Source of the DNA: Pseudovirgaria hyperparasitica
Lineage: Eukaryota
Assembly (NCBI GenBank): GCA_010093815.1
Contig: ML996574.1
DNA length: 64,000 nt
Direction: 5' to 3' (one strand)
The position numbers and the translations under genes were made by a program. This document shows, piece by piece, positions 1-19,237 of the stretch. The notes under the pieces are model-generated. The model saw only the letters and a program-made list of their open reading frames with translations, was not told the origin of the DNA and ran no database searches. Positions within the stretch are counted from its first letter, which is position 1; the number at the start of each line of letters is the position of its first letter.

Positions 1-2369
1 GAATATAGTACTAAGTTTCCGCTTAATTCCTAGCGTATAGTAGAAATCCTTCTAAAATTTAGATGTTATCTATAGACCTCTATCCGAAACTATACCGTTT
101 AGTATACTATAGAGCCGGACTACGTCACGGAGTAGTATATCTATAAGATCCGGTACTTAGATCGTCTTCCTTATAGGGATATAGTATAATATCTTTATAA
201 ATCTATCTAGAACTATAAGTAAACTATTATAAATATATCTAGAATACTTACTTAGGGGTAGATCTATAATAAAATCTATTAATAATTCCTTCTATACCTC
301 CTTTAGTATAGGTAATGGCCTTAATTCGCTATATAGTAAGTATCTATATACTTTCGTATACTAGTAAACGTTATACGTTTTTACGTAGTCTTTTATATAT
401 TTATAAAGACCCGGCTAGTCGTATATCCTTTAGATTAAATTAACTATTCTTATAACGCTAAAGTGCTCTACTAACGCGTAATCATGCTATTCCCTTAAAA
501 TATTAATTTATAAGCCGTCTTCCGGCACGTAGAGTCGGCCTTAGAAGTAGATCGCGTCCGATTATCGTTTCTACCTTAATAACTATGGTAGATCTATAGC
601 GCTTCCTTTCATGCTTATGACTTTCTTTACTAATATATTAGAATTCTAGGTAGATTTAATTAAGTCTTTAAGGGTTTTCTTAGTTTCTTAGATATTTATT
701 TAGATTACTTAATACCCGCTCTAATTCCCACGGAGAATCGCCGAAAGTATCCTAGCTTCTAGTATTCTATTAGATAACTAGTCTTATAGTATCTAAAGTA
801 TAGTATAGTCTAACTTATACCGACTATCTACGTTATTCTATAATAATTTCTTATAATCTTTACGCCGCGATAGAGGATTAGCTTTATTCTCTCTTCTAGC
901 TTTATATAAGATTTTAAAGTTAAATATTAATATCTACTTANNNNNNNNNNATTTCTTATAATCTTTACGCCGCGATAGAGGATTAGCTTTATTCTCTCTT
1001 CTAGCTTTATATAAGATTTTAAAGTTAAATATTAATATCTACTTAGCCTAACATACTTATCGGCGATTAAGGACCTTAGTTAATATAAAGTAATGTAGAT
1101 TTACGTAATCCGATAATAATTCGATCTAATATATAGAGCCTTCTAAATAATATCGCTATTACTTAAAACTCTTAATAATTATAAGTAGTTCCTAGTCATG
1201 CGTATTATAACGCGTCTCTATATCTACCATTTTATAGAAAAAGAAAGCGACCGGGTACTATTATACCTTATCTTTCGTATCTTTATACGGTTAACTAATA
1301 ATTCTAGTAATTACGAATCCTAACGCGTTAGTTTTAACCCGAATATACTTCTTAGGATTAAAATACCTAAGAATCGGCGTAGTTATAAAGTAATTCTTTA
1401 ATAATTAGAACGTATCTCGCGCTTCCGGCGTTAACTATATCTCGACCGACTTAGCTTTACGCTATACTCGCCTATCTATAGGGATTTTACCGCTATTCTC
1501 TATAAGTTTATTAAGCGGCGCTATAATTTATAAGAAGCCTATAATGAATTTACGATAATAGTTTACGAAACCTATAAATATTCTAATTTAATATATAGTA
1601 GTAGATTCTAGCTATTCTATAATAGTCTTTATACACTCCGGCTCTATTTTTAGGCCGCTATATATTATAATAAAGCCGAGAAACCTAACTTCTTATTAGT
1701 AAAACTCGTATTTAGATAATTTTACGTAGAGTTTATACTACCTTAGATAATTTAGTACCGATTTCACGTGTTCTTTATAATTCTATATACTATTAGAGTA
1801 AATTAGTATATTATCGAGATAAACTACGTAAATCACGTTAAGTAATCCTACGAGTGTAGTATTAATATATCCTTAGAACGCTCCTAGTGTATTTATTAGC
1901 CCGAATAGTATAATAGTATACTTAAAATAACTATATCTAGTCCGAAATGCGGTTTTCTACTTATCTCTATAATGAATTTAAAGCCGGTAATATATATCTC
2001 GTAAATCTAGCTTCGTAAAGTACTTTACCTTTATTAATTAGTCTAAAGATTTACTAACTAGCGGTAATAGATAACGATTCTTCTTAGTTACCGTATTTAG
2101 TACCCGATAGTCGACGTATAGATATAAACTTCTATCTTTCTTCTTTATAAAGAGAATAGATACGCCGGCCGATAACGTACTATAACGTATCTAGCCTCTT
2201 TCGAGGTATTCTTTAATATATTTATAAAGAACTTTAAGTTCTAGTCTTAAAAGTAGATAAAGTAGGCTATAAGGGACGTCTACTCCCTCTTCGAGCTCGA
2301 TCTTTAGCTTATATAGCCCGTGATTAGGGAGAAGTAACGCATCTTCTACCGAAAACACATCCGTATACT
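1..2369 (-). mobile_element. Ty3/Gypsy family A, copy 1 (RT-RNaseH-integrase part), interrupted at 2369 by family B
   Basis: Colinear with 12498-~14761. The minus strand near 1801-1833 reads IYVVYLDNILI (RIP'd YLDD). An integrase ELLIDF motif near 270-290 reads ELSMDF in copy 2. Confidence 0.9.
941..950. other. Assembly gap (10 N) with a 95-bp overlap duplicated across it
   Basis: 846-940 is repeated exactly at 951-1045. The homologous segment in copy 2 (near 13340-13440) is single. Confidence 0.9.
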
Positions 2370-2609
2370 TGTAAGGATTATAGACGTAGGATAGTAGTCT
2401 AACAGGTCATAGGAGGATTCGGGAATATATTTAAAAGGGTAGTCTACTCTCTTAACGAGGTTGATTCCTAAAGAGTAGGAATTAAGTATGTACGGCCTAC
2501 TTATATAGTAGTCTTGCTTATTCTAGCTGGCTTACCCTAGGTCCACCTATCACGGACTATACTAGACTATAGTATTCTAGTTAAGTCTATTCTAGTATTA
2601 GCCCTAATA
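2370..2609 (-). repeat. 3' LTR of family B
   Basis: Begins TGTAAG exactly where homology of A copy 1 to copy 2 stops, ends ...CCCTAATA (RIP'd CA end), and is adjoined by a minus-strand polypurine tract AAAAAGAAGAAGGATAT (2610-2626). No partner LTR in the window. Confidence 0.7.
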
Positions 2610-3177
2610 ATATCCTTCTTCTTTTTATGCTTCGCCCCGAAGTACTTAGCTATATATAAATCCGTAATTCCATAAGTATTATGTTTATACGCGTATCTAA
2701 TTAAATCCATATAACGTTATCGATAGTCTTTATATTAGTGAACTTAAGCTCTAGTTTACTTTTATTTATACACGCGCTTATCCCTTACTTTATAGCTACT
2801 ACCTTAGAGATAGCTCCGTGGGTTATATAACCGCTATATTAACTAAGCTTATATTTAGTTCTCTTATTCTAAATTTTCTTCTCTAGTATATCTACCTTAC
2901 TCTTAAGGTAAGTCGTTAATTCGTATACTATCTCCTTTAGTTTAGATCCGTTCGGGTCTAGAGTGGTCTATTTTTATTAGAGCTAGTCCTATATAATCTA
3001 TTCGCGTTATTACGGTTACTAATTTAGCTTCTTTAATCGCCTTTAAGGCTAAACGAGTATTCTACTCTTAGATCTCTAGCTAACGTGTGTATATAGATAT
3101 CTAATACTAGTCCTATTTCTAAGCCTGCCTCCTCCTCTCGCAAGACTTACTCTAAAGGGATTATCTCTACCCTAGCT

Positions 3178-4407
3178 ATACCGGCTAAAAAATCCACTTA
3201 TTATAGTAGTATAAAGGCGCGCTCTAAGTTAGAGAAGAAGGTAGCTAAGGCTACTACTACTATTATTATTACTACTAACGTGGCTACTAGTCGCTCTAAT
3301 CTAGGTAATTCTAGTACTAGTGTTACGGAAGAGATAGCTATAGAGCCTATCTATATCTACTCGCGCTATCTATCTACTCTATCTCCTTTAGAGGATAAAG
3401 AAGATCTTATTATAGACGATAATTAAGAGTTTACGCCTTTACTACCTCGCTCTAAATACTATTCCTCTTTTCGGTCTAATATAGACCGACTTAGTCGCTC
3501 TAGGTCCTTTTAGGACCTTAATATTCGCTCTAAACCTAGCCCTAGTAATAATAAGGTCTAGGTCGCCGAAGATACTAAACGTAGTCACGGTTTACGCTAT
3601 AGGAAAATGGTAAACTACGGTTTAATATACTTTAAGTATATTAAGGCTTACGCTACCGGCTCTAAATATCTCTTCCGCTCTAACTCTAGTATTAGCTACT
3701 ACTCTACTAACCGCGATGGGTCTATACGCCTAATCTTTAAGCTCTCTACCCGCTACCGCTACTATACCGTCCTTAGTAAAGTTTATCTTTAGATAAGTCT
3801 ATTAGACTATTTTAGTCTAGGGTAATCTAAAGTTATCTATACTAATATATTTTTAGGTTTCTATTTATATATAAGATATATATAATGATCTTCGCGTCCG
3901 CGAGACTCTCGGCGGTTCTAGTAGTTATCTAGCTTCTATATATAGAGAGTTTAGGGAGCGCTATAAGCTCTTTCTAGAGGTTATTAAAGTATAAGTTTAG
4001 AAACCGTTAATTATTATTAATCTTAGCTTATAATTTTTAGTTACTACGAGATTCCTAGTACTTAGGCTACCTATTCTAGGGAGTTGGTTTTAGCTACTAA
4101 GGCTATAGAAGAGATTTATACTATTTCTTTCTATCTACCTTATACTACTAACGGGTCTTATAAGAGATCTACTAGTTCTCCTTCTAAGTTACCTCGTAAG
4201 AGGGTATATATTCTATTCTAGATTATTCTAGACTACGTTAGCTAACTTTAGGTCTAGTCGCTCCGCTCTAGCGCTTAGTCGTTATCTTACTAGGCTCTAA
4301 CCAAGCGTGTAGTTACTCTAGAGGATAAGGTCTCTAACCTCTATTACTCTATTACTTAGTTAGTTCGTTTACTACGCTCTAAGAGTAATAATAAGATAGA
4401 GGAGTAG
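3178..4407 (+). pseudogene. RIP'd three-exon antisense accessory gene of family B (Cys-cluster plus C-terminal coiled coil)
   Basis: One frame 3178-3792 (ATA CCG GCT AAA, probably MPAK) has only three internal stops, all RIP-compatible TAA/TAG. Intron-like segments 3793-3856 (ATAAGT..ACTAAT..TTAG) and 3991-4040 (ATAAGT..TTTAG) keep phase. The last exon reads LTKRVVTLEDKVSNL. Confidence 0.65.
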
Positions 4408-5225
4408 CTCTATAGCTCTATTTACTAGGGTTTCTATATAGTATATATTAGCTCTATCTACCTAGTTTCTATCCGTTTTAGTCCTTTTTAGACCGTTTAG
4501 ATATCTATCTACTAGTTTTTTAGTAATTTAATTCTTAACTTAATAATATTATATACGTTCTTATTTATTCTATAACTATTAAATTTTAGGTTCTAATTTC
4601 CTTTAAGTTACTTAAGTATAGGTATTATATATAAATTAGTTTATCTCTCTAAATTATATTAGAGTACCTAAACTAGTAGCCTAGTAGTTATTAGTTTAGG
4701 TACTCTAACCTTTTATATTATATATTATAAGTTTAATTCCGTAGTAGGGTACCTTTTTAGTTTCTTGGTCCCATGTTCTTCTCGTGTGTAATGGTCTATA
4801 TTAGTCTATTCTAGACTTCTCCATGTTATTCTATTGTAATATATCGTGTCGCGTGCCTATAACGGTTATTTACGTTTTCTTCGCGTTTAGTAACTATGCA
4901 TCGCTTAAATTATAGGGCTACCTTATAGAGTTTTCCTAGTATGCGTTTAGGATTCGTGATTCGATACTTCGTTCTCTATAGTATCCTTCTTCTTTTTATA
5001 ACGGCCCCGACGGCGCTAGGTTTACGGTAGTAACGTGTTATTCTATAACCTCTATTTATATATAGCTATCGCGGTACTTAAGATATATACCGTAGGTTCC
5101 TAGGTGTCCTTATCCTTGGTAGAGTTCTTCTAACGGATTTAATACTTTTAGACACCGTTCTCGTCAAGCCTATGTTCAATAATATAGTCTACTTCGTATA
5201 CGTCTAGTCTATCTTAGGGTATAAT

Positions 5226-5796
5226 TGTAAAAAGGGCAGGTATAAATAGATATATAATATTCCTTATATAAGGAATATATATCTAAATAGAGTTATATAA
5301 TAGGATCTAGCCATAATAGACTATTATATAATAAACGGATCGGCGGAGTATAGCTTAAAGATAATAAGAATATAGTATAATTCTTAAAGTAAAGACTAGA
5401 TAGAGAGAGAACTAAATACATAGAGAGACCGTTTCTTATATATTCCTCCTTATACATTCTAGATCCTTCTCTTAATTAATAATAGGAATCTTCTAGACCT
5501 CTAGACGTACGTATATATTCTATAGCTCTAGTAGTTTCCTTAGAATAGAATAGAGTAGAGTAGAACTCTATAGAACTTATAGACTCTATAGTAGAATCTA
5601 ATAGAACTCTATAGAAGTTCGTGTTTCTAAAGACCTCTAGAAGTTTCTAGAGGGTTCTAGAAACTTCTATAAGGGTATAGAGTATTTATATATATAAGTA
5701 GATAATATTAGTAATATTAATTACTAATATTAAGCTATTCCTAATAAGGAAGTACCTTATATAAACTTATTAGATATAGTAGAGGTTAAGTTTACA
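5226..5796. mobile_element. Solo LTR of a third family, inserted in the family B integrase
   Basis: TGTAAA...TTTACA termini flanked by the 5-bp TSD ATAAT (5221-5225 and 5797-5801). Removing it plus one TSD copy rejoins the integrase C-terminus to the chromodomain in frame. Confidence 0.88.
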
Positions 5797-8700
5797 ATAA
5801 TAGAGTGTAATTGCACGTTCGTGTGTTTGTATACGTTAGGTCGAAACCTTTTAAGTAATAAGACGTGGAATATATTATGACTTTTATATTATTTTCTAGG
5901 TCGAGCTCGTAGGCTCTTATACTAATGCGACGTTTAATTCGGAAGGGACCAGCCATTTTATAATCGAGCTTTTTATTTACTCACGATGTTTATATATTAC
6001 GGATATTAAGTAGGACTTTATCTCCCTCCTCGTACGCTTAATCTTTAACTAATCTATTATAGTACTTTATATATAACTCATTCGCTTACTAGATTATTAC
6101 GCGACAGTTACGTGCAGTTTTAAAGATTTTAATTGCTAGTTTCTACGCGTGGACGTTAACATCTATCGTTCGGTCGAACTAGACCGTGTAAGGTTCGAAA
6201 CCTATCCTTAGACTACGTCCTAGGTTCGCCTAGAAGGGCGTAACACCTATTATACTATAACGACTATTATTATACGCGAATTCTACTATACTTAGTAGAG
6301 AGGCCTAGTTATCTTATTCGAAATTATAGAATGCACGAAGGTAGGCCTCGAGCGTTTAGTTCTATCGCTCTATCTAACCATCTATTTATAGATGGAATGC
6401 TATTAACATATTTCTATTTATACCGGCCATTTCGTAGAATAACGTCTAGAATTTAGACGTGAATATACTCCCTCGGTCCGTAACGATCCTTTTTAGTATA
6501 CCATAGACCTTAATAATCTTATTCTAGAATACTTATACTAGTTCTTTTAATATAATCATCTTCTACATAGGGACGTACCTAGATATCTTTATAAGTCTAT
6601 CCACGATAATAAGAATTAAATTATAACTTATTCTAAGTATCTCGCTTAGAGGTAAGTTAACTATAAAATCTATAGTAATATCTTTCTATATAAAGAGGGG
6701 GACTAGTAGAGGCTGTAAGTTCCTATATGGCTTATGCCTAGGTGCCTTTATTCTTTAATAAATTAGATAAGTAGCTATCTATTCTTTAACGTACTTAGGT
6801 ATATCTTTCTAAAAATAGTACTAATAAATCGAGCTTAGGGTGCGTATATACCTAAAATATTCTACTAGGTTAGCGTTATGGTATCGGCTAACTATAGTAA
6901 ATTGTGCGTTACCCGTTAGTATATAGTACTTTCTATTATAGTAGAGTAAGCCGTCTACGAAGGTCTACTTATAGTCTACTTCGGTCCGTAATAACCTATC
7001 TTACTATATTTTATATAACTTTAAAACTATTAGGTCTATCTTTTATAGATCCACGATTAACTAGGCGAGGTCTACTTAATATACACGCCGGGTACTATCG
7101 CCCTCCCTAATAGCGCCGATAAATGGCTTACTAGGGACTTTAGTACTATGTCTTTAGTTACCGGCTTCGGTCTTATAAATTCGATTACTAGTATCGGCGT
7201 TAGCATCTCGCTAATCGTCGGATAACTTATTATCTAACCTCGTCCTTAAGAGTTAGGCCTATAGCTACTCTAGGACCCTATGGCCACTATAATCCTAGGT
7301 GCCTTCTTCATAGTTAGGTCTTCTTAATATTCTATTAGCTAGGTTTATACTTCTAGGTTAATGGTAGATTATAAAGTAGAAATTTATAAGCTACTTAGCC
7401 TATCGAACCTATCGATGATTTAAAACCGTCGTGCTTATAAACCCCTTTAAGTTATAGTAATTAGTTAGTAACTTAACGTTATACATAGTACCTTTAAGAT
7501 AATATCGCTACTACTTAAACGACTCTACTATTACTAGTAGCTCTTAGTTATAAATAGTATATCTAGTCTCGACGTCGGCTATCTTACGCGAGAAGAACGT
7601 AACTAGATACTATTAGACCTTTTTAGACTCTATTAGTCTAGACTAGGAGAGTATACCCGAGATTATAAATCCTAATATATTAGTTTTAACGCGAATAGGT
7701 TTGGTTAGATTAAAGTGCACTAGTAATAGGGCGGTTATAAATGCTTCTTTAATCTTCTTAAAGGATGTTCTTTCGACCTTAGTTAATTTAATAGATTATA
7801 ATTTAATATTACGCTATTTCTATCTACCACGGACCATAATAGACGAGTTAGTAGTAGTAGTACGCGTATTAAGTGGTGCGGCTAAACGGGAGAAGTATTT
7901 AATAAATTTTCGGTAGTAGTTGGCAAAGCTAATGAAGACACGTATATCTCGAACGGATTTTAGTTTAGGCTAGTCTATAATAGTAGTAACTCTATCTCTC
8001 TCTATGGTTATACCTTAATTAGTAATAACGAAGCTAAGAAAGTTAATATGGTCCTAATGGAACTCGTATTTAGATAGCTTAATGTATAGCTTATACTTTT
8101 CTAGCCTATCTAGGACTATACGTACGTACTAGATATACTCATCCTCATTATCTAAGAAGATAAGAATATTATCTAGGTATACGATATATATCGTGTCAAG
8201 TAGACCTACTAGCGCGTTATTAATATACGCTTAGAAGGTGCCTAGCGCGTTAGTTAGTCTAAAAGGGACTACGGTATACTTAAAGTATCTATAACGGGTC
8301 CTAAAAGCCGTTTTCTATTCGTCGCCTTCCTTAATACGAAGGCGATAGTAGGCGTTACGTAGATCGAGCTTAGTAAAGATCTTTACATATCCTAGTCTAT
8401 TAATAGACTCGGAGATAAGAGGTAGTAGGTAACGATTCTTTCGTGTAATATTATTTAGGCTATAGTAGTTAATATATAGATGGAGGCTTCTATCCTTCTT
8501 CTTTATAAAGAGGATTAGAGCTCCGGCTAGGGATATACTAGGCCTAATCTATCCTTACGTAAGGTTCTTTTTAATGTATTCTCGAAGGGCTTATAACTTA
8601 GGTTCTAAAAGAGGGTAGATAGGTCTATATAGAGGTTACTAGCCGTCTTTAAGATTAATAGTAAGGTCGGTAGATTAGTATTAAGGTAGTTCGGAGGAAT

Positions 8701-9563
8701 CGATCGCTAACGTAATATGTTAGTATATTTTATACTAATGTAGTAGGTTTTTATCTACTTTAATACTAAGCTCGCTATTTTACGTAAGTAAGAGTACGTA
8801 GATAGTCGAGATCGCCTTCTTATAATCTTTCTAGAATTATTCGTCGTTAATAAGCTGTACTAGTTCCCATTAAGGTGGGTTTATACGCTAGCTAGCTATC
8901 TTCTTAAGGAAGTCTAGTTTTAGATTATATTTCTTAAGCTACGGTATACCTAGGATTATGTCGAAGGGACTATCTACCACGATAAAGGTTAAGTAGTAGA
9001 GTTTCTATTTCCCTCCGCTATCCTAGATGCCGTATTTAATAGTATAGATACCGTGTAACTTAATAGGACTATCGATACTATAGAATATAGTACCTATTAG
9101 AGCTTAGATATCGGCCTTAAGTTCTCGTGCTCGTTAGGTCGATATAACATTAGTAGCCAACCTACTATTAAGTATTATAGTCTAATATTATCCACGAGGG
9201 ACCTTAATAGGTCTAGCCTATAGTTCGATATACTATTTAGCGGATTACCCCTCTATTATAGTCGCGTCTATAAGTCGCGAGGGTTTCTCGTAGGCTATTA
9301 GTTTTTTATATTCTATGCTAGATAGTTAGGCGTGATATGTTCTAGCTACTAGTACTTATAGTATATAACTAGTTAGTTAGTTATATTAGCACTCGGTGGC
9401 TTCCCCAAACGGTACTTAGGTACTAGATAGTCTATTCTACTATAGGTGTAGTAAGTAACTTTAGGTCATTTATACGAGTCGGTCCTCGTATCTCGATGTA
9501 TTGATTGGTAGAGAGATCCACGATACGATCCGCGTGGTTTTAAATTTAAGGCGTGGTAGTAGC

Positions 9564-9791
9564 TGTAAGAATAGGGTTATTGGATAGTAGTATAGTTAGA
9601 TAGAATAATAGGGTGTATTCTATTATAGAACGAATTACTACTAAACCCTTTTAGTAGGAATCTAAGAGTATATATATAAAGGGACGCCGATCTATCTAGC
9701 ACGTAACTATTTACCGCCCTTTACGTTACCTCCTAACCCTATTAGCTAAGGTATATATAGGTCGGGTCCTACCTAAGGCTAAGTCCTAATA
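9564..9791 (-). repeat. 3' LTR of family A
   Basis: TGTAAGAATAGGG...GTCCTAATA; matches 16719-16946 (direct) and 18210-18437 (inverted); adjacent minus-strand PPT GAGGGAAGAGATAA. Confidence 0.92.
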
Positions 9792-10275
9792 ATTATCTCT
9801 TCCCTCTAGGAAGCTGCCCTTAGTAACCTAGATTATTATCTATCTCTATATCCCTATTCTAAGTCTCGTAAGACCTTAGTCGTTCTCTACGCTTCGTCTT
9901 AGATACTTACTAATATTTACTAATCTAAGATTTATATAAGCGTTTTCCTAATAAACTAGATTTTATCTATCTTAACTTCTTATATAGGTGAGATTACCTA
10001 ATTAGGCCTAGCGTATCACGTAATATAATTAGGTAAGCCCGGGTGCTACCTATATTAAAATCTTTTCTTAGAAATATTCCTTTCTTTAAAAAACTTCTTA
10101 ACTCTTTATAGAGTTTTTTAGATTATTAGATATATCACCCGATCCTTATAGATATAGATTTATATAGATTTACTATAATTTAGTACGATTTACGCAATTT
10201 ACTAATTTTTGTACCGTCCTTAGCTAGTAATAATATAATTCGTAATAATCCGTATAAATTAATAATAATCTTAAT

Positions 10276-11257
10276 ATGGTTTCCCGAAATCTTAACGCTC
10301 TAAAGTAATTAGTACGGAAACAGGCGCCTTCGAATAATCCCTATCTTATATATATTACCGACATGTCGAAAGCCATTAATCTACCCCGACCTAGGCCGGG
10401 CTCTAATAATCTAGCTATATATTATTATGGTTATTGCTTTCCGTCGTACATTACTCACGGTAGTACTAAATCTATAATATACGGTACTTATATAACTAAG
10501 AAGCGTTATTACTTATAGGTATTTAAGTAAGTTCGAAGAACTTTATATAGATTTACTTATATTAGTATAGATTACTACTAGGCCTCTAGTAACCCCTACT
10601 AATAAGGAGCGTAGTACTACTAATCGTAACGCCTTAGAGAAGGCTTTCTACGAGCTATATACCTAAGGTAAGGGTTACGCCTAGGAGTATAATTCTAATA
10701 AGATCTATAAGGATTTATCGGAATCTACTATAGCTATTATTACCGCGATTACTAGGTAATATTATTTTTCTTAAATCGTTATAGATTCTTACTAATATAT
10801 ATTAATCTCTATAATAGTACTAAAATCTCTACTACTTCGGACTTCTTTCTATACACTAGTAATATTAGAATTCCTAGAAAAGGTTCTAGTAAAAAGGCTA
10901 AGGTTCCTTCCTTACGCGTGCTAAAGAGCTATAAATTTAGGGAAGATAGCTCTAATCTAGAAGTTTCTATACTAAAGGTATGTGGTTCTATACCGATCGT
11001 TAAATCTTTTCGCTAATTTATATAATTCTTAGCGTGCCTACGCCGGTCCGTCCCTCTCTATCCCGGGTCCCGCCGCTCCATAGGTTTCTATAGAGGAGTT
11101 TATAGCTATAAGGCGCGCTATATAGAATTTATAGCGTCGGAACGAAAGGCTAGAGACTTATATTATAAAGCTCTATACTATACTAAATAAGAACTAGCGG
11201 AAGGAATTAGATATAACCATCGCGGTAATTAGTACTTCTACTCCTACTCCGACTTAA
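10276..11257 (+). pseudogene. RIP'd multi-exon antisense accessory gene of family A (Cys-cluster plus coiled coil); 5' end uncertain
   Basis: Frame 10276-10518 reads PYLIY...GYCFP...IYGTYITKKRYYL*, followed by GTATTT..TAG (10519-10570). A canonical intron at 10978-11032 (GTATGT..GCTAAT..TTAG) precedes a last exon reading EEFIAIRRAI*NL*RRNERLE. Confidence 0.62.
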
Positions 11258-14200
11258 TCGGTTTAGATCTATACTAATTAGTACTAATATATCTCTTTTA
11301 TCTAGCGTTTTTAGTTTTTCGGTTTTAATTTTAAAGCGATCTTACTTCTTCTAGATAGATTAGTACGAGTTTATATAGATCTATATAGATCTTTATATTT
11401 TCTTTTAGCTTTCTTAATTTTATCTTTCTTTAATAATAACTTCTTTAATCTCTTTAGTAATCTATACCGATCTATACTAATCGGCACCGATTTTCGATGT
11501 CTATTTCTCTTAGTAAATTATTTTTCTAAGTCTCTTTTTTAGTTAAATTTTTTAAAGTTCTAAGTTCGAACTTTCTAAGGAAGTTCCTTAATTCCTTAGA
11601 ATGTTTTAAAGATCTATATCTCTTTTACCTTCTTCCTTTTAGGCGGCTGTCCTCGGCGCTAAACTATACTAAAAAACGTTAAATCGCTGTACTTTAGTAT
11701 AATTCTCTGCGATTCCGCGGCTTCCTTTACTAATTGCTGCTTATATACTAATATTGCTACTTTACTAATGTTTATTATAGGTTTCTAAGTATCTTTATTA
11801 GGATTATATCCTTTCTAATAAATCTTATATAGCTATATACTATCTTTAGCGCGTTACTAGCTAAGTATCTACTTAACTTCGTAGATATCTATACCTTCTA
11901 CGTAACTACTTTATATAGTATCTATTCGGAATAATCTAGTAATAATAAGGCATGAAATAGCTCGAGAAGTATAATATGGAATATATTATATATCTTTAAC
12001 GTAGGAGGAAGTTATAACTCGTACGTCTGGTTATTAATTATATAAGTAATCTTATATAGACCTATTATTATATAGTTAAGCTTCTTCTTTGGCCTAATAC
12101 TATGAATATTCTTACTATTTAGTAAAACTTTATCCCTAATATTAAAGATTATAGGTTTTCTACCCTTATTATAGTGCGATTTACTATAATCCGTAGTATC
12201 TTATAGTAACTTTATAACGCTTCTTTACGTTTAGAATAGTTCTATAGTAATTTCTATTACTTTAACGTTAGGTCGTTCTACTTTAAACTAAGTCCCTAAG
12301 AACTATATATTATGGTTCTAACCGAAGTTTACTTTAAATAGACTTACGTCGGTTAACGCATGTCGGCTATTATTATACGCGAATTCCGCAATATAGACTA
12401 ACCTTACCTAGTTATTCTACTTATAGTTATAATATACGCGTAAATACGCCTCGACTATCTAGTTCTACCGCTCCGTCTATCTATCTATTTATAGATGGAA
12501 CGTAGTACTAAGTTTCTACTTAATTCCCAGCGTATAGTAGAAATCCTTCTAAAATTTAGATGTTATCTACGGACCTCTATCCGAAACTATACCATTTAGT
12601 ATACTATAGAGCCGAACTACGTCACGGAGTAGTATATCTATAAGATCCGGTACTTAGATTATCTTCCTTATAGGGATGTAGTATAATATCTTTATAAATC
12701 TATCTAGAACTATAAGTAAACTATTATAAATATACCTAGAATACTTACTTAGGGGCAGATCTATAATAAAATCCATGGATAATTCCTTCTATGCCTCCTT
12801 TAGCATAGGTAATAGCCTTAATTTACTATATAGTAAGTATCTATATACTTTCGTATACTGGTAAACGTTACACGTTTTTACGTAGTCTTTTATATATTTA
12901 TAAAGACCCGGCTAGTCGTACGTCCTTCGGATTAAATTAACCGTCCTTATAACGCTAAAGTACCCTACTAACGCGTAATTATACTATTTCCTTAAAATAT
13001 TAATTTATAAGCCGCCTTCTAGCACGTAGAGTCGGCCTTAGAAGTAGATCGCGTCTAATCGTCGTTTCTACCTTAATAACCACGGCGGATCTATAGCGCT
13101 TCCTTTTATACTTATGACTTTCTTTACTAATATATCGGAATTCTAGGTAGATTTAATTAAGTCTTTAAGGGTTTTCTTAGTTTCTTAGATATTTATTTAG
13201 ATTACTTAATACCCGCTCTAATTCCCGCGGAGAATCGCCGAAAGTATCCTAGCTTCTAGTATTCTATTAGATAACTAGTCTTATAGTATCTAAAGTATAG
13301 TATAGTCTAAATTACACCGACTATCTACATCATTCTATAACGATTTCTTATAATCTTTACGCCGCGATAGAGGATTAGCTTTATTCTCTCTTCTAGCTTT
13401 ATATAAGATTTTAAAGTTAAATATTAATATCTACTTAGCCTAACGTACTTATTAGTAATTAAGAACCTTAGTTAACATAAAGTAACGTAGATTTACGTAA
13501 TCTAATAATAATTCGATCTAATATACGGAGCCTTCTAAATAATATTACTATTACTTAAAACTCTTAATAATTATAAGTAGTTCCTAGTCATACGTATTAT
13601 AACGCGTCTCTATATCCGCCATTTTATAGGAAAAGAAGGCGACCGGGTACTATTATACCTTATCTTTCGTATCTTTATACGGTTAACTAATAATTCTAGT
13701 AATTACGAATTCTAACGCGTTAGTTTCGACCCGAATATACTTCTTAGGATCGAAATACCTAAGAATCGGCGTAGTTATAAAGTAATTCTTTAATAATCGG
13801 AACGCATCTTACGCTTCCGGCGTTAACTATATCTCGACCGACTTAGCTTTACGCTATACTCGCCCACCTATAGGGATTTTACCGCTATTCTCTATAAGTT
13901 TATTAAGCGGCGCCGTAATTTATAAGAAGCCTATAATGAATTTACGATAATAGTTTACGAAACCTATAAACGTTCTAATTTAACGTATAGTAGTAGGTTC
14001 TAGCTATTCTATAATAGTCTTTACACGCTCCGGCTCTATTTTTAGGCCGCTATATATTATAATAAAGCCGAGAAATCTAACTTCTTATTAGTGAAACTCG
14101 TATTTAGATAATTTTACGTAGAGTTTATACTACCTTAGATAATTTAGTACTAATTTCACGTATTCTTTATAATCCTATATACTATCGGAGTAAATTAGTA

Positions 14201-16718
14201 TATTATCGAGATAAACTACGTAAATCACGTTAAGTAATCCTACGAGTATAGTATTAATATATCCTTAGAACGCTCCTAGCGCATTTATTAGCCCGAATAG
14301 TATAATAGTATACTTAAAATAACTATATCTAGTCCGAAATGCGGTTTTCTACTTATCTCCGCGACGAATTCGAAGCTAGTAATATATATCTCGTAAATCT
14401 AGCTTCGTAAAGTACTTTACCTTTATTAATTAGTCTAAAGATTTATTAACTAGCGGTAATAGGTGATGATTCTTCTTAGTTACTATATTTAGTACCTGAT
14501 AGTCGACGCATAGACGTAAACTTCCGTCTTTCTTCTTTACGAAGAGAATAGATACGCCGGCCGATAATATACTATAACATATCTAGCCTCTTTTAAGGTA
14601 TTCTTTAATATATTTACGAAGAACTTCGAGTTCTAGTCTCGAAAGTGGGTAAAGTAGACTATAAGAGACGTCTACTCCCTCTTCGAGCTTAATCTTTAGC
14701 TTATACGGCCCGTAATTAGGGAGAAGTAACGCATCTCCTACCGAAAACATATCCGTATACTACGAATATATATCGGGTAGCGTGTCTTCGCCCCGATTAT
14801 TACTATCGTTCTCGTCTTTATTAATAATTAATAAGGATATAAGATAGATTAGCGACGATTAGGTCCGCACGGCGAGGTTCTATGCCTCCTTACTAATAGT
14901 TACGACTTACTAGTATAATTTACCACGGTATTATCGGAACGTTAATATCTTCTTCTAAAAATTAAGGATAGGGTTTAGGCGTCTAAGCTAAGGTATCCCT
15001 AGAATTATATTCTATTAGCTAATATTAGCCACGATAAATTTATTAGATATCTACTATTTTATTATCTTTAAGTCATGAACTCCGTAATTCGTTATAGCTT
15101 TACCTAAAGTTCTAACTTTATATCTATTAACTATAATAGTTTAGCTAACTTTACCGAGATCGTACGATAATCTATACTCCTTTATAAGAATCGACGAAAT
15201 ATAGTAATCTTCTATACTAGTGTCCACGAGGGCCTATATAGTTTTATTACTATTTACTATAGGTAACGATACTTTTAGTAATATTAGGTCTTTACTCGCC
15301 GGAAGGCGCTACGGCTCCTTCTAAGTATATATAATTTAGCTAAGAACGCGGTTAGGTCTCGTGTACTAGCCTATTCTTTTTTCGGATTCTTATAGTTAGG
15401 CGAAATATATTCTATTTCTCTATACTTATAGTAACGAAGTACGCTATAATCCTACTATTTTACGATAGGTGTTATATTTAAGTCTATACCTTATCCTTTT
15501 CTATGTTAAGAAGTACCGCCTTAATTATTTTAGTATCCTCTTAACGCGTTTCTACCTCGATTTACGCTTTTCTAGCGCTAATCGTAGTAAGGTTACTCTT
15601 AATCGAATGTATTCGATCGACCTTATTTCTAACCCGTATAGGGTTCGTCGGTTTTACCTAGAGAGCCGCGTTCCTTAAGGATGCGGTAGTGTTTATTAGC
15701 TTTCTCCTCTAATTTATGTAGATAGTTAAAACTTAATAATACTATTCCTAGTCTTTTGCGGATTAATAGAAGTAGTACTTCGTGAAACTAGAATATACGA
15801 ATATTTTTCTATAGCGTAGGGATATTATTCTATAGGTTTTAGAGGTATTATAGTAGTTAAGTAGGTGTCTAGTTCGGTCGTTATACCACGCTTCTTAACT
15901 TAGATAGTGCCTTTCTTTCACGTTCTCCATCCGTTCCGAGAGTGTTTAGTATAAATATAGCTAAATATTCCTAGGTTATCGTAGATAGTGGCTGTACTTC
16001 CTTCTATCTATCCTATTAATCGCGGGATTATAAGCCTAGGTATCGTTCTCCGAACGAAATACGTTATACTTTAGTAGAAAAGAGTAGAGGGTTATCGAGG
16101 AAGTACTTTTCGTAGTCTCTCTTCTAGTCTTTCTACTCCTTTTGGTTCTTCCCTATAAATATAGTCGGGTCTTTAGGTTTTAGTATATCTAGGGAAGGAG
16201 TAGAGTAAATCGGTAACGAAGCGGCTAGGTATACGGTGGATTATCGCAACTCTAATGGTAGGTAAACTAATTCTACCTGAATTAGTATAGAAAGTCGTCC
16301 ATCTACTATTATTCGGCGTAGTTCTTTAAGAGACTCCTTAAGTTCTCGTCTCTTTATGAGGAGTTTCGCGCGTTCTACCTATTCTTTAAGGGTTTAAATC
16401 TCTTGAGCCTAATTCGCGACGTATTTCTAAAGTTCGGTAATGGTTTATTATAATACCTTACGTGGCTCCGCCACGACTTATTATCCGGCTTTATATTATT
16501 AGAAGTTACTCGGTGTATCTACTATTTCTTCGTCTAAAAGCTCCGTGATTTAGTCTAATATTTCTACTTCTCGGTTAGAAATGGCTAGGATTAATACCGA
16601 TTATAGAGGATCCCTATTATTTAATATAGTGTTACTTATCCCTATAGTAGATCGTATCGACCTTCTCGGTTCTAGTTAGACTATCTTAACTATAGTACTA
16701 TATAGGGAGTAATTCGAA

Positions 16719-16946
16719 TATAAGAATAGGGTTATTAGATAGTAGTATAGTTAGATAGAATAATAGGGTGTATTCTATTATAGAACGAATTACTACCGAA
16801 CCCTTTTAGTAGAAATCCGAGAGTATATATATAAAGGGACGCCGATCTATCTAGTACGTGACTATTTACCGCCCTTCACATCACCTTCTAACCCTATTAG
16901 CTAAGGTACGTGTAGGTCGGGTCCTATCTAAGGCTAAGTCCTAATA
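16719..16946 (-). repeat. 5' LTR of family A
   Basis: 228-bp direct repeat of 9564-9791 containing a TATA-like run at ~16824-16835. Confidence 0.92.
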
Positions 16947-18437
16947 GAGACGGACCGGCGTGGGTACGCTAAGAATTATATAAATTAGGAAAAAGATTTA
17001 ACGATCGGTATAGAACTATATACCTTTAGTATAGAAACTTCTAGATTAGAGCTATCTTCCCTAAATTTATAGCTCTTTAGTACGCGCGAGGAAGGAACCT
17101 TAGCCTTTTTACTAGAACCTTTTCTAGGAATTTTAATATTACTAGTATATAGAAAGAAGTCTAAAGTAGTAGAGATTTTAGTACTATTATAGAGATTAAT
17201 ATATATTAATAAGAATCTATAATGATTTAAGAAAAATAATATTATCTAGTAATCGCGGTAATAATAGCTATAGTAGATTCTAATAAATCCTTATAGATCT
17301 TATTAGAATCGTACTTCTAGGCGTAACCCTTACCTTAGATATATAGCTTATAGAAAGCCTTCTCTAAGGCGTTATGATTAGTAGTACTACGCTCCTTATT
17401 AGTAGAGGTTACTAGAGGTCTAGTAGTAATCTATACTAATATAAGTAAATCTATATAAAGTTCTTTAAACTTACTTAAATATCTATAAGTAATAACGCTT
17501 CTTAGTTATATAAGTACCGTATATTATAGATTTAGTACTACTATAAGTAATATATAACGGAAAGTAATAACTATAATAATATATAGCTAGATTATTAGAG
17601 CCCGGCCTAGGTTAGAATAGATTAATAGCTTTTAATATATTAGTAATATATACGAGATAGGGATTATTTAAAGACGCCTATTTCCATACTAATTACTTTA
17701 GAGCGTTAAGATTTCGGGAAACTATATTATAATTATTATTAATTTATATAGATTATTACGAATTATATTATTACTAGCTAAGGACGGTATGAAAATTAGT
17801 AAATTATATAAATCATACTAAATTATAGTAAATCTATATAAATCTATATCTATAAGGATCGGGTAATATACCTAATAATCTAAAAAACTCTATAAAGAGT
17901 TAAGAAGTTTTTTAAAGAAAGGAATATTTCTAAGAAAAGATTTTAATATAGGTAGTACCCGGGCTTACCTAATTATATTATATAATACGCTAGGCCTAAT
18001 TAGGTAATCTTACCTATATAAGAAATTAAGATAGATAAAATCTAGTTTATTAGGAAAACACTTATATAAATCTTAGATTAGTAAATATTAGTAAGTATCT
18101 AAGACGAAGCGTAGAGAATAACTAAGGTCTTACGAGACTTAGAATAGAGATATAGGAATAGATAATAATCTAGGTTACTAAGGGTAGCTTCCTAGAGGGA
18201 AGGGATAATTATTAGGACTTAGTCTTAGGTAGAACCCGATCTATATATATCTTAGCTAATAGGGTTAGAAGGTAACGTAAAGGGCGGTAAATAGTTACGT
18301 ACTAGATAGATCGGCGTCCCTTTATATATATACTCTTAGATTCCTACTAAAAGGGTTTGGTAGTAATTTATTCTATAATAGAATACACCCTATTATTCTA
18401 TCTAACTATACTACTATCTAATAACCCTATTCTTACA
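16947..18437 (+). mobile_element. Family A, copy 3: 3' 1.5 kb in opposite orientation, with PPT and 3' LTR (18210-18437)
   Basis: Reverse complement of 9564-11054. PPT AGAGGGAAGGGATAA at 18194-18208; LTR ends TTCTTACA at 18437. Confidence 0.92.
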
Positions 18438-19237
18438 CTATCTTCTAGTAATATTAGTAGTAGTATAAGAGATAGTTAGCTAGTAAGGAGCCTATATAGA
18501 TATTAGTATTATCTATAATACCGCGAGTGGTATATTACAACTCTATTACCATGGATATTAATAGCTTTATCTCTTAGTACTCCGAATTACTAGAGAAAGA
18601 ATAGTATAAGGTTATTAAGGATAAGCTTATCTACTAGCGACGTAAACCTTCTATTAACTACGATAGTAAATAGGCTAACGCGCTAATTACCTTCTAGATA
18701 GCTTATTAGAATAACTATCCTTAGCTAAGTTAACTAGTAATTGACGTTCTAAGTATCCTAGCCTTAAGTTATAAGTATAAACGTGCCTTTAGCGAGGCTG
18801 GCGATATAATTACTACTCGTTAAGTAAAGCTTTATCCTATAATAGTTCGGCTAGTACTCTACTTAAAGTCGTAGATAGAAAAAGAACTTATTAACTTATA
18901 GCCTAAGTCGTAAGGCTAATAATATACTTTTCCGTTCTATATGGTAATCGACTTAACTTAGTAGAGGGTGATTCTATTAAAAAAGCTCGGATTTTAGCTA
19001 TTTCCTCGGTTTTTGACTTAAAGTCATCTATAAGTAACTATATTTAGATATACTTATCTCTTGGTTTCTCTATCTCCTTCCTAATTAGGTAATTATTATA
19101 TAAGCGAGTTAATCTAATATAAGTAATCTTAATCCCTTAGCGTAGATTCCAAGCTTAATCTATACTTTTGGGGTGACTAATCATATAATCCTAATCTAGT
19201 ACCTCGGATTGTATCCGATTGTATATGCTCACGTCTG
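18438..19237 (+). mobile_element. hAT DNA transposon 3' end (transposase dimerisation domain and putative right TIR)
   Basis: Plus strand ~18692-18892 reads F*IAY*NNYP*LS*LVIDVLSILALSYKYKRAFSEAGDII...LYLKS*, the RIP'd form of the hAT YP-x-L...LSIPA-S...ERxFS...LKSW motif. The end reads CAGACGTG... on the minus strand, with two subterminal GATTGTAT repeats. Confidence 0.82.

Follow-up and report, generated by a model that had tools for sequence, protein, structure and literature searches.

A stretch of 64,000 nucleotides (nt) from Pseudovirgaria hyperparasitica (contig ML996574.1 of assembly GCA_010093815.1), referred to here as the window, raises the question of what lies at positions 10276-11257, on the plus strand of the spacer that separates pol from the 3′ long terminal repeat (LTR) of a minus-strand Ty3/Gypsy element, probably a chromovirus. 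We refer to this retrotransposon as family A, copy 2. The segment is probably the remnant of an antisense accessory gene of the element, inactivated by repeat-induced point mutation (RIP). This reading rests on position, strand, frame structure, the size and layout of the gene, a motif combined with an intron position, and the bracketing of the element by intact relatives in a phylogeny, and not on alignment statistics. The gene model of the relic comprises the following parts.

10276-10518, plus strand: exon 1, 81 codons, with Y-x2-Y...Y-x2-Y-x6-Y-L-TAG; stops at codon 11 (TAA) and codon 81 (TAG)
10519-10570, plus strand: putative intron 1, 52 nt, GTATTT...TATAG, phase 0, two codons past the last Tyr of the motif
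10571-10755, plus strand: exon 2 relic, 61.7 codons, two in-frame stops; codon-usage score of 5.4-5.7 in this frame
10756-10817, plus strand: putative intron 2, 62 nt, GTAATA..TACTAAT..AATAG, phase 2; alternative models exist
10818-10977, plus strand: exon 3 relic, 53.3 codons, stop-free, within an 86-codon open stretch (10756-11013)
10978-11032, plus strand: putative intron 3, 55 nt, GTATGT..GCTAAT..TTAG, phase 0
11033-11257, plus strand: exon 4 relic, 75 codons including the terminal TAA (11255-11257), four in-frame TAG; charged, heptad- or helix-like

Together, these parts add up to 271 codons (270 amino acids [aa]). The model contains eight internal TAA or TAG stops and therefore does not constitute an open reading frame (ORF); all nine of its stops are TAA or TAG. 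The antisense gene is dead in family A copy 2. Read from the ATG at 10276, the plus frame gives ...SNNPYLIY...GYC...YGTYITKKRYYL, followed by the TAG at 10516-10518 and then by GTATTT, and a perfect GTAAGT is located 8 nt past this donor. An earlier note on this DNA had described the frame, with PYLIY...GYC...Y-L-TAG and a GT behind it, as well as a textbook intron (intron 3 here) in front of a coiled-coil-like last exon; both features were present as described. The relic is antisense to pol and lies within a 1.8-kb spacer between the end of pol (~11630) and the polypurine tract and 3′ LTR (9566-9807). It thus occupies the position that characterizes the aORF-3R class, i.e., antisense ORFs between the pol stop and the polypurine tract or 3′ LTR, to which brtn of Boty-like elements belongs.

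The surroundings of the relic set the terms on which it has to be read. Positions 1-19000 have a guanine-plus-cytosine content of ~31%, compared to ~50% in the remaining window, with a sharp switch at ~19000, and they are packed with TpA dinucleotides, as RIP would leave them. In the frames that we read, the in-frame stops encountered were TAA or TAG without exception. A Pfam scan of translations that read through stops detected Ty3/Gypsy pol domains three times, each on the minus strand. This part of the window is a RIP-type, AT-rich nest of minus-strand Ty3/Gypsy elements, probably chromoviruses; at the ~19000 boundary the retrotransposon nest stops and ordinary gene-like sequence starts. 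The element layout was derived from a self-comparison of the window DNA (blastn) together with Pfam scans, and for family A copy 2 it is as follows.

9566-16946, minus strand: family A copy 2, with 226-nt LTRs and a purine run
9566-9791, minus strand: 3′ LTR, 226 nt, with TA(TG)...CA ends
16721-16946, minus strand: 5′ LTR, a direct repeat of 9566-9791 at 93% identity
9796-9807, minus strand: polypurine-tract-like run just upstream of the 3′ LTR, judged by eye
11955-14540, minus strand: reverse transcriptase, RNase H, integrase, and SH3 domains (Pfam)
11883-11734, minus strand, in a shifted frame: chromodomain-like end of pol, with a basic tail peptide at 11629-11658

One minus frame of this copy carries RVT_1 (1.7e-21), RT_RNaseH_2 (1.4e-15), Integrase_H2C2 (6.5e-8), and SH3_Tf2-1 (9.6e-10). 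The order of the domains on one strand and the direct LTRs with a purine run identify family A as Ty3/Gypsy. The Pfam Chromo model gave no match in the RIP-damaged frames of the window, and the polyprotein relatives carry PF00385. Due to the RIP stops, the exact pol stop of copy 2 cannot be placed. Past the chromodomain, on the minus strand at 11292-11772, the pol frame remains rich in Lys/Arg and pol-like in its codon-usage score for ~400 nt. The pol of family A may have a long basic tail that ends near the stop of the antisense gene.

A second, truncated copy of the spacer is present further along the nest.

16946-18437, minus strand: copy 3 of family A, inverted and truncated, comprising the LTR and the spacer up to the equivalent of 11055

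Copy 3 corresponds to positions 11055-9564 of copy 2 at 93.7% identity over 1,492 nt without indels, and 92 of the 94 differences are transitions. It holds the same relic on its minus strand, with NNPYLVY in place of NNPYLIY (the PYLVY reported in the earlier note), the motif at 17483-17521, and the ATG changed to ATA. Copy 3 has decayed further than copy 2 (80 extra transitions, the loss of the ATG, and the truncation). The decayed antisense gene was thereby shown to belong to the element: the spacer is part of the repeated unit, as it recurs in copy 3 and as 11,210 contig pieces of run X1 fill all 30 bins of the interval 9564-12000. These pieces are DNA contigs and report the presence of the sequence only; their depth over the relic is of the same order as over pol. 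Comparison of copies 2 and 3 did not undo the RIP damage, since the stops are common to both copies and none of the stops of the model was removed. Within exon 1, one Cys codon of copy 2 reads Tyr in copy 3. As TGY to TAY is a RIP transition, the Tyr motif is readable as a former Cys motif.

Intact relatives of the element show what such a Cys motif looks like in a living gene. The RIP-damaged family A pol matches full-length fungal chromovirus polyproteins at 32 to 45% identity, and a search of metagenome contigs with an alignment of 14 polyproteins yielded 69 loci (510 kb). Several of these loci contain long antisense ORFs just past pol. Four of them (L004, L007, and L018 directly, and L009) share one construction, in which a Cys-rich first exon is followed by a short intron. 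The genes are antisense and lie at least 224-330 nt past the pol stop; the L009 contig is circularly permuted, and its antisense gene lies 1,134 nt after its pol stop. Gene models were obtained by enumerating spliced ORFs from a start codon, and all four are uninterrupted. The L009 ORF encodes 286 aa, with three GTAAGT..YAG introns, exons of 89, 65.7, 70.3, and 62 codons, and phases 0, 2, and 0; the L004 ORF encodes 266 aa, likewise with three introns and phases 0, 2, and 0, and with exons of 98, 54.7, 47.3, and 67 codons. L007 and L018 each encode 284 aa, with two introns and one intron, respectively, and their antisense genes are homologous to each other (E 2.9e-10). The introns of the relatives measure 44-79 nt, combine a branch site of the CTRAC type with a YAG acceptor, and leave a stop-free frame after splicing; their predicted lengths are 79, 72, and 58 nt in L009 and 44, 47, and 51 nt in L004. 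The last exon of L009 is Lys/Glu-rich and bears a weak resemblance to coiled-coil families that does not reach the Pfam cutoffs. The relatives thus provide clean and testable gene models of 266-286 aa with one to three introns, and the relic, with a modeled length of 270 aa, resembles them in protein length and has the exon count of L004 and L009 as well as similar exon sizes.

The first exons of the four relatives have five invariant Cys residues (C-x2-C, 35-49 residues, C-x2-C-x5-7-C), and in all four a phase-0 intron is located two residues past the last Cys. The exon end and donor read CLE/GTAGGT in L004, CLA/GTAAGT in L009, CVE/GTGAGC in L007, and CVP/GTGAGT in L018. The tail of the motif is C-x2-C-x5-C-L-E in L004 and C-x2-C-x6-C-L-A in L009; in the window families it is Y-x2-Y-x6-Y-L-TAG, followed by GT in family A and by AT in family B, the sister family described below. 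The Leu that follows the last Cys in L004 and L009 is therefore the same Leu that is found in A and B. Further upstream, NNP-C-x2-C of L004 corresponds to NNP-Y-x2-Y of A. The spacing of the window motifs (Y-x2-Y-x42-Y-x2-Y-x6-Y in A, x38 in B) fits the five-Cys pattern only if Tyr is read as RIP-changed Cys. Among the relatives, the combination of the motif with a consensus donor was found in 4 of 49 loci within 85.8 kb of downstream antisense sequence, and in L009 on its permuted contig. It did not occur in the 85.8 kb of downstream sense sequence or in 185.8 kb of pol sense sequence, and the single "pol antisense" match in 185.8 kb was L009 before its pol end was refined. This combination is specific to the downstream antisense region. 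It is by means of the Tyr-for-Cys motif and the intron position that a RIP-dead relic of this kind becomes recognizable.

Family B carries a counterpart in the corresponding place.

~9560 down to ~4990, minus strand: family B from protease to chromodomain, with the spacer below
5040-5201, minus strand: chromodomain-like end of the family B pol (peptide match)
3607-3792, plus strand: counterpart of exon 1, Y-x2-Y-x38-Y-x2-Y-x6-Y-L-TAG, then ATAAGT; the upstream frame is open to 3097

No LTR pair was found for family B by self-comparison of the window. The exon 1 counterpart ends with YRYYTVLSKVYL, followed by TAG (3790-3792) and ATAAGT. Judging from the intact relatives, family B would hold the same antisense relic in the same place as family A. 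The claim that both families end this exon with Y-L-TAG at the same intron position was borne out, with GTATTT behind the stop in A and ATAAGT in B. The pol regions of A and B share ~60% DNA identity and 42% protein identity (E 2.6e-172); their spacers showed no DNA similarity by blastn, in agreement with what the earlier note had seen in this region. The antisense frame at 3097-3792 (plus strand) spans 231 codons with just 3 stops, and true pol frames have 6-7 stops per 100 codons. Since a Ser/Thr/Lys-rich part resembling trinucleotide repeats lies within this open frame, upstream of the motif, the first exon of B may be much longer than that of A. Family B also has ~670 nt between SH3 and the chromodomain-like peptide (5201-5872, minus strand), compared to ~70 nt in family A; the extra ~670 nt are an insertion or an additional segment.

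To place these genes on the history of the elements, a pol tree was calculated with FastTree (LG) from 871 columns anchored on the polyprotein P0012. It contained P0012 and 57 DNA-derived rows, namely, 54 of the 69 loci and the three window copies; 15 loci with less than 60% coverage were left out. Family A copies 1 and 2 and family B grouped together (support 1.0) as sister to L004 and L009 (support 0.993), and a wider clade adds P0012, L002, (L007, L018), and (L010, L030, L001) with a support of 0.971. Among the clade loci with enough flank, the gene is present in L004, L009, L007, and L018 and absent in L002. Gene presence follows the pol tree. The earlier note had proposed a conserved accessory gene, antisense between a chromodomain integrase and the polypurine tract or LTR, and had left room for the homologs to be ordinary host genes; the intact relatives at the same position in the same pol clade support the proposal, and the homologs are linked to Gypsy pol rather than being ordinary host genes.

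Sequence similarity between the relic and these relatives was assessed exon by exon, after the exons of the relatives had been subjected to RIP in silico, with 1,000 composition-preserving shuffles for each of 28 exon pairs. L004 exon 2 matched A exon 2 with a p of 0.007 (KAYKILGDATAVI versus KIYKDLSESTIAI, at the end of L004 exon 2), and L009 exon 3 matched A exon 3 with a p of 0.018; these were the only pairs with a p of <0.02. L009 exon 4 reached a p of 0.08 against A exon 4, with 9 of 15 residues in the local match, and the values for L004 were 0.11 for exon 1 and 0.13 for the last exon against their A counterparts. L009 exons 1 and 2 showed no similarity to A exons 1 and 2 (p of 0.88 and 0.89). 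All 21 nonmatching exon pairs had a p of >0.13. The sequence similarity of the A relic to the relatives thus appears weak but colinear.

The most serious alternative is that the spacer is noncoding and that exons, introns, and Tyr motif have been stitched together by chance from TA-rich, RIP-saturated DNA. In such DNA, Tyr, Leu, Ile, and stop codons dominate every frame, and a stop-avoiding chain can be built anywhere if GT..AG introns are allowed without limit, even antisense to pol. A local gene finder with unlimited introns was discarded, as it returned ORF-like chains everywhere and did not discriminate. We counted the fewest stops along a 979-nt path with at most three GT..AG introns of 45-90 nt and compared this minimum with dinucleotide shuffles. 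For the plus strand of 10276-11254 the minimum was 3 stops, compared to 9.1 ± 1.9 in the shuffles, and none of 200 shuffles was as low. Across 362 windows of 979 nt on both strands of the RIP block, the mean was 8.4 stops. The 11 lowest windows, each with 2-3 stops, all come from plus-strand spacer sequence, either of B (2701-3401) or of A (10201-10801). Genuine pol sense windows had 4-6 stops, and a pol sense control had 6 compared to 10.7 in shuffles (6 of 200 as low). Since the lowest stop counts of the RIP block occur there, the antisense strand of both spacers is frame-structured. A RIP-tolerant pattern built from L004 and L009 ([C/Y]-x2-[C/Y]-x5-6-[C/Y]-L-x, then GT or AT) matched four times in six frames of the 19 kb, compared to a mean of 0.61 in 200 shuffles; the matches are those in A, copy 3, and B and one at 5244-5279 (minus strand), with A and B matching at corresponding places. 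The fourth match falls within the 5201-5872 segment of family B. Intact sister elements, moreover, carry a real ORF of the same layout. The chance explanation has already been weakened by these results, and we consider it improbable.

A number of results nevertheless weigh against a gene remnant. Five of the 19 stop-free stretches of at least 55 codons in the RIP block are on the plus strand antisense to pol. A codon-usage classifier trained on pol, with a frame accuracy of 75%, gave patchy support in the spacer and favored its plus strand in exon 2 only. A permissive splice enumerator yielded other phase combinations with fewer stops (2 versus 4), so that the match in phases 0, 2, and 0 is not unique; phase enumeration had no unique outcome for A or for B. 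No Cys was restored at any of the five Tyr codons among the 40 listed of 136 copy variants. The sole Cys codon in exon 1 of copy 2 stems from CGC in most copies, and Tyr can therefore also descend from Arg or His.

Homology searches added to this side of the balance. The A and B proteins did not align beyond chance, an outcome that the earlier note had named as a refutation: six-frame translations gave an E of 0.4 for the best of 36 frame pairs, and the Smith-Waterman score of the two first exons was 25, compared to a shuffle mean of 29.4 (81.6% of 2,000 shuffles reach 25). This test is a weak one because the sequence is RIP-saturated and fast-evolving; the recovery of intact relatives through pol was the more informative one. 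With the plus-frame read-through as query, phmmer returned no matches at an E of ≤0.001 among 1.84 billion representative proteins, a word-based protein search with the window frames returned none, and Pfam detected no families at an E of ≤1 in six plus frames of the spacers. By tblastn, the six frames of both spacers reached a best E of 0.21 against the 69 loci. A hidden Markov model of exon 1 of the four relatives ranked neither A nor B above background, either raw or after Tyr-to-Cys conversion, and its scores were all close to zero; with four sequences it had no power. A block-wide Smith-Waterman scan with relatives subjected to RIP in silico was swamped by Tyr-rich composition; exon 1 of A copy 2 was outside the top matches, and the 99th percentile was reached only by copy 3 (rank 4-5 of 2,502) and one B window. 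The lack of a database homolog, the unalignable A and B proteins, the failed model test, and the alternative splice models are among the points in favor of the chance explanation.

A somewhat less probable alternative is that A, B, and the relatives each captured unrelated Cys-rich fragments of host genes into a permissive spacer and converged on a similar architecture. It is consistent with the observations that, of 13 antisense ORF queries, only that of L007 (L007a) matched another locus or the window (L018, at the E given above), and that L002 lies inside the clade without the gene. It is also consistent with the variety among the loci, which fall into four structural types: the intron-bearing type of L004, L009, L007, and L018; the intronless antisense Cys-motif ORF of L014; that of L059, which is split by one stop; and an intronless type in L044, L056, and L057. 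The last type encodes 173-178 aa with the exact spacing C-x2-C-x6-C-x9-C-x2-C-x6-C and a long predicted helix, and overlaps or abuts the pol stop.

L044, 1311-1829, minus strand of the locus: Zn2Cys6-spaced ORF
L056, 5608-6129, minus strand of the locus: Zn2Cys6-spaced ORF
L057, 4586-5119, minus strand of the locus: Zn2Cys6-spaced ORF; the overlap with the pol stop is ~43 nt

Against independent captures, the five Cys positions align within the clade of A, B, L004, L009, L007, and L018; the phase-0 intron two residues past the last Cys is common to all four intact members and to the two window families; and protein length is 266-286 aa throughout. The shared intron position in particular makes separate captures hard to sustain. 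The weakest alternative, which we regard as highly improbable, is that the sense strand of the spacer is the coding one, either extending pol or holding a third ORF, with the open plus frames as its mirror image: open plus-strand stretches do occur antisense to pol, one frame on each strand is spared by TA dinucleotides that fall at codon boundaries, and the codon-usage score favors the minus frame in the basic pol tail (11292-11772), but the minimum over 10276-11254 is 9 stops on the minus strand, which matches the shuffle mean, compared to 3 on the plus strand, and the uninterrupted ORFs of the intact relatives are antisense.

A decayed antisense accessory gene thus remains the preferred explanation of 10276-11257. 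In its intact form, the gene would be split into four exons by three short introns (phases 0, 2, and 0) and encode ~270-286 aa, as observed in the relatives and expected for A. Its product would have an N-terminal Cys-rich, probably zinc-binding domain with the five conserved Cys residues and a charged helical last exon. Transcription of the gene would start in the spacer or the 3′ LTR and converge with that of pol. Given what is established about retrotransposition, the introns of the gene would be retained by the element because, being antisense to the genomic RNA, they are never spliced from the transposition template. Preservation of introns by the antisense orientation is offered as a reason for the strand of the gene. 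If the gene is real, its product may be a dimerizing, zinc-dependent nucleic-acid- or chromatin-binding regulator of the element, an assignment that we make tentatively.

Searches with the intact proteins bear on this assignment. The L004 ORF retrieved one near-identical protein (96%) and nothing else. The ESM Atlas returned no usable match for the L007 ORF (template modeling score of ≤0.33), and a PDB sequence search with the L056 and L014 ORFs gave nothing below an E of 0.02, with weak matches to designed coiled coils only. Pfam Zn_clus (PF00172) did not match the antisense protein of any relative. The A/B type departs from Zn2Cys6 spacing (C-x2-C-x6-C-x5-12-C-x2-C-x6-8-C), with 35-49 residues between its Cys groups. 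An AlphaFold2 model of the L057 type (predicted local distance difference test [pLDDT] of 57) shows a helix of 56 residues and, at the two C-x2-C groups, two short ones. All 17 matches listed for this model, of 22 that Foldseek found in the PDB at an E of ≤10, are Zn2Cys6 domains (with Gal4, Leu3, Ppr1, Put3, Hap1, Pho7, and AlcR among them) at weak E values of 0.5-5. For the L057 type, this model-based result may serve as a weak lead. The AlphaFold2 prediction for the Cys domain of the L009 type, which is the type of the window, had a pLDDT of 44 and was unusable. The broader idea that a whole fungal chromovirus clade carries an ancient, spliced third gene, antisense and encoding a zinc-cluster and coiled-coil DNA-binding regulator, with true Gal4-type Zn2Cys6 versions in L044, L056, and L057, strikes us as rather doubtful.

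Antisense ORFs with a Cys motif were found in 7 of the 35 loci that have at least 1,300 nt past the pol stop (8 with L040), and also in L018 and L056 despite their shorter flanks. The L040 motif, at -97, is inside pol and likely spurious. A 361-aa antisense ORF in L027 was recognized as a neighboring Copia-like gag and rejected. The related loci L032 and L039 contain a sense Cys-rich ORF of 169 aa (C-L-P-C-C type) ~1,150-1,290 nt past the pol stop, which is unlike the antisense genes.

The remainder of the nest preserves traces of its own history.

1-2369: family A copy 1, 5′-truncated, cut by the window edge

In the integrase region of this copy, a 95-nt stretch is duplicated at 100% identity (846-940 and 951-1045, 105 nt from start to start); it is single in copy 2 (13343-13437). 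Because it is perfect within a RIP-saturated region, the duplication looks younger than RIP. The 5′ LTR of copy 2 abuts copy 3 at exactly 16946, which creates an inverted LTR pair (16721-16946 and 18210-18435) around a 1.26-kb spacer. Since the remainder of copy 3 is absent beyond copy 2, this junction represents a rearrangement and not a simple nested insertion. Copy-to-copy differences within 9564-12000 are often paired, with TA versus CG at adjacent bases (e.g., 10313-10314, 10353-10354, and 11039-11040; runs X1, X3, and X5), and the transitions between copies 2 and 3 are equally frequent before G and before A. Both observations indicate that the mutation process hits CpG as well as CpA.

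The relic has consequences beyond this locus. What would be annotated as a long 3′ untranslated region in these fungal Gypsy families is a gene, a point on which annotators should be warned. The relatives and the motif offer an entry point to function, with control of LTR transcription, targeting, and defense against silencing as candidate roles. If the idea of a zinc-cluster and coiled-coil regulator across the clade were true, retrotransposons would encode their own fungal-style transcription factor acting on the LTR or on host chromatin, much as HBZ does for human T-cell leukemia virus type 1 (HTLV-1), and genes might pass between the elements and the large Zn2Cys6 family of the host.

Among known systems, the fungal Zn2Cys6 (Gal4-type) proteins with a coiled coil share their Cys spacing and long helix with the L044, L056, and L057 proteins, and differ from the type of the window, where the gap between the Cys groups is much longer. 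HBZ of HTLV-1 is a small dimerizing nuclear regulator of the basic leucine zipper (bZIP) type, made from a spliced antisense transcript that arises at the 3′ end of the provirus. Its likeness to the antisense gene is one of logic only; HBZ belongs to a human retrovirus, has a bZIP and not a Cys cluster, and no homology is implied. To our knowledge, extra antisense genes of LTR retrotransposons have been found in a handful of plant families and in Boty, none of them with a known function, and have received little study.

In plants, antisense ORFs between pol and the 3′ LTR are described in the review PMC7264820 for Grande, RIRE2, Retand, and PvRetro13. According to the same review, they are conserved within families, and they share position and orientation with the family A relic; they differ in that they belong to plant elements, with the Retand lineage given as nonchromovirus in PMC11963269, and no sequence relation is expected. 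The closest published case is brtn, which Boty-like elements carry in Botrytis and Sclerotinia (Zhao et al. 2011, Virology 417:248); it is cited and drawn in PMC7264820, and used in PMC8365987, as a gene that lies antisense in the interval from pol to the 3′ LTR. Boty has a CHROMO domain (PMC4227169), and a BRTN-like transcript is reported in Monilinia (PMC5987419). Boty resembles family A in being a fungal Ty3/Gypsy element, with a chromodomain where family A has a chromodomain-like peptide, and in its extra antisense gene at this site. The window copies differ in being RIP-dead, and the likeness, drawn here from published descriptions of brtn, is one of position and orientation. Judging from titles and abstract openings, the papers listed in our literature searches do not describe a Cys-rich or zinc-cluster antisense gene in fungal retrotransposons. 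The kind of gene, antisense and placed between pol and the 3′ LTR in a fungal chromovirus, has been published before; what is new is its recognition in two RIP-dead families, the existence of intact relatives that bear introns and conserve both the Cys motif and the intron position, and its clade-wise distribution.

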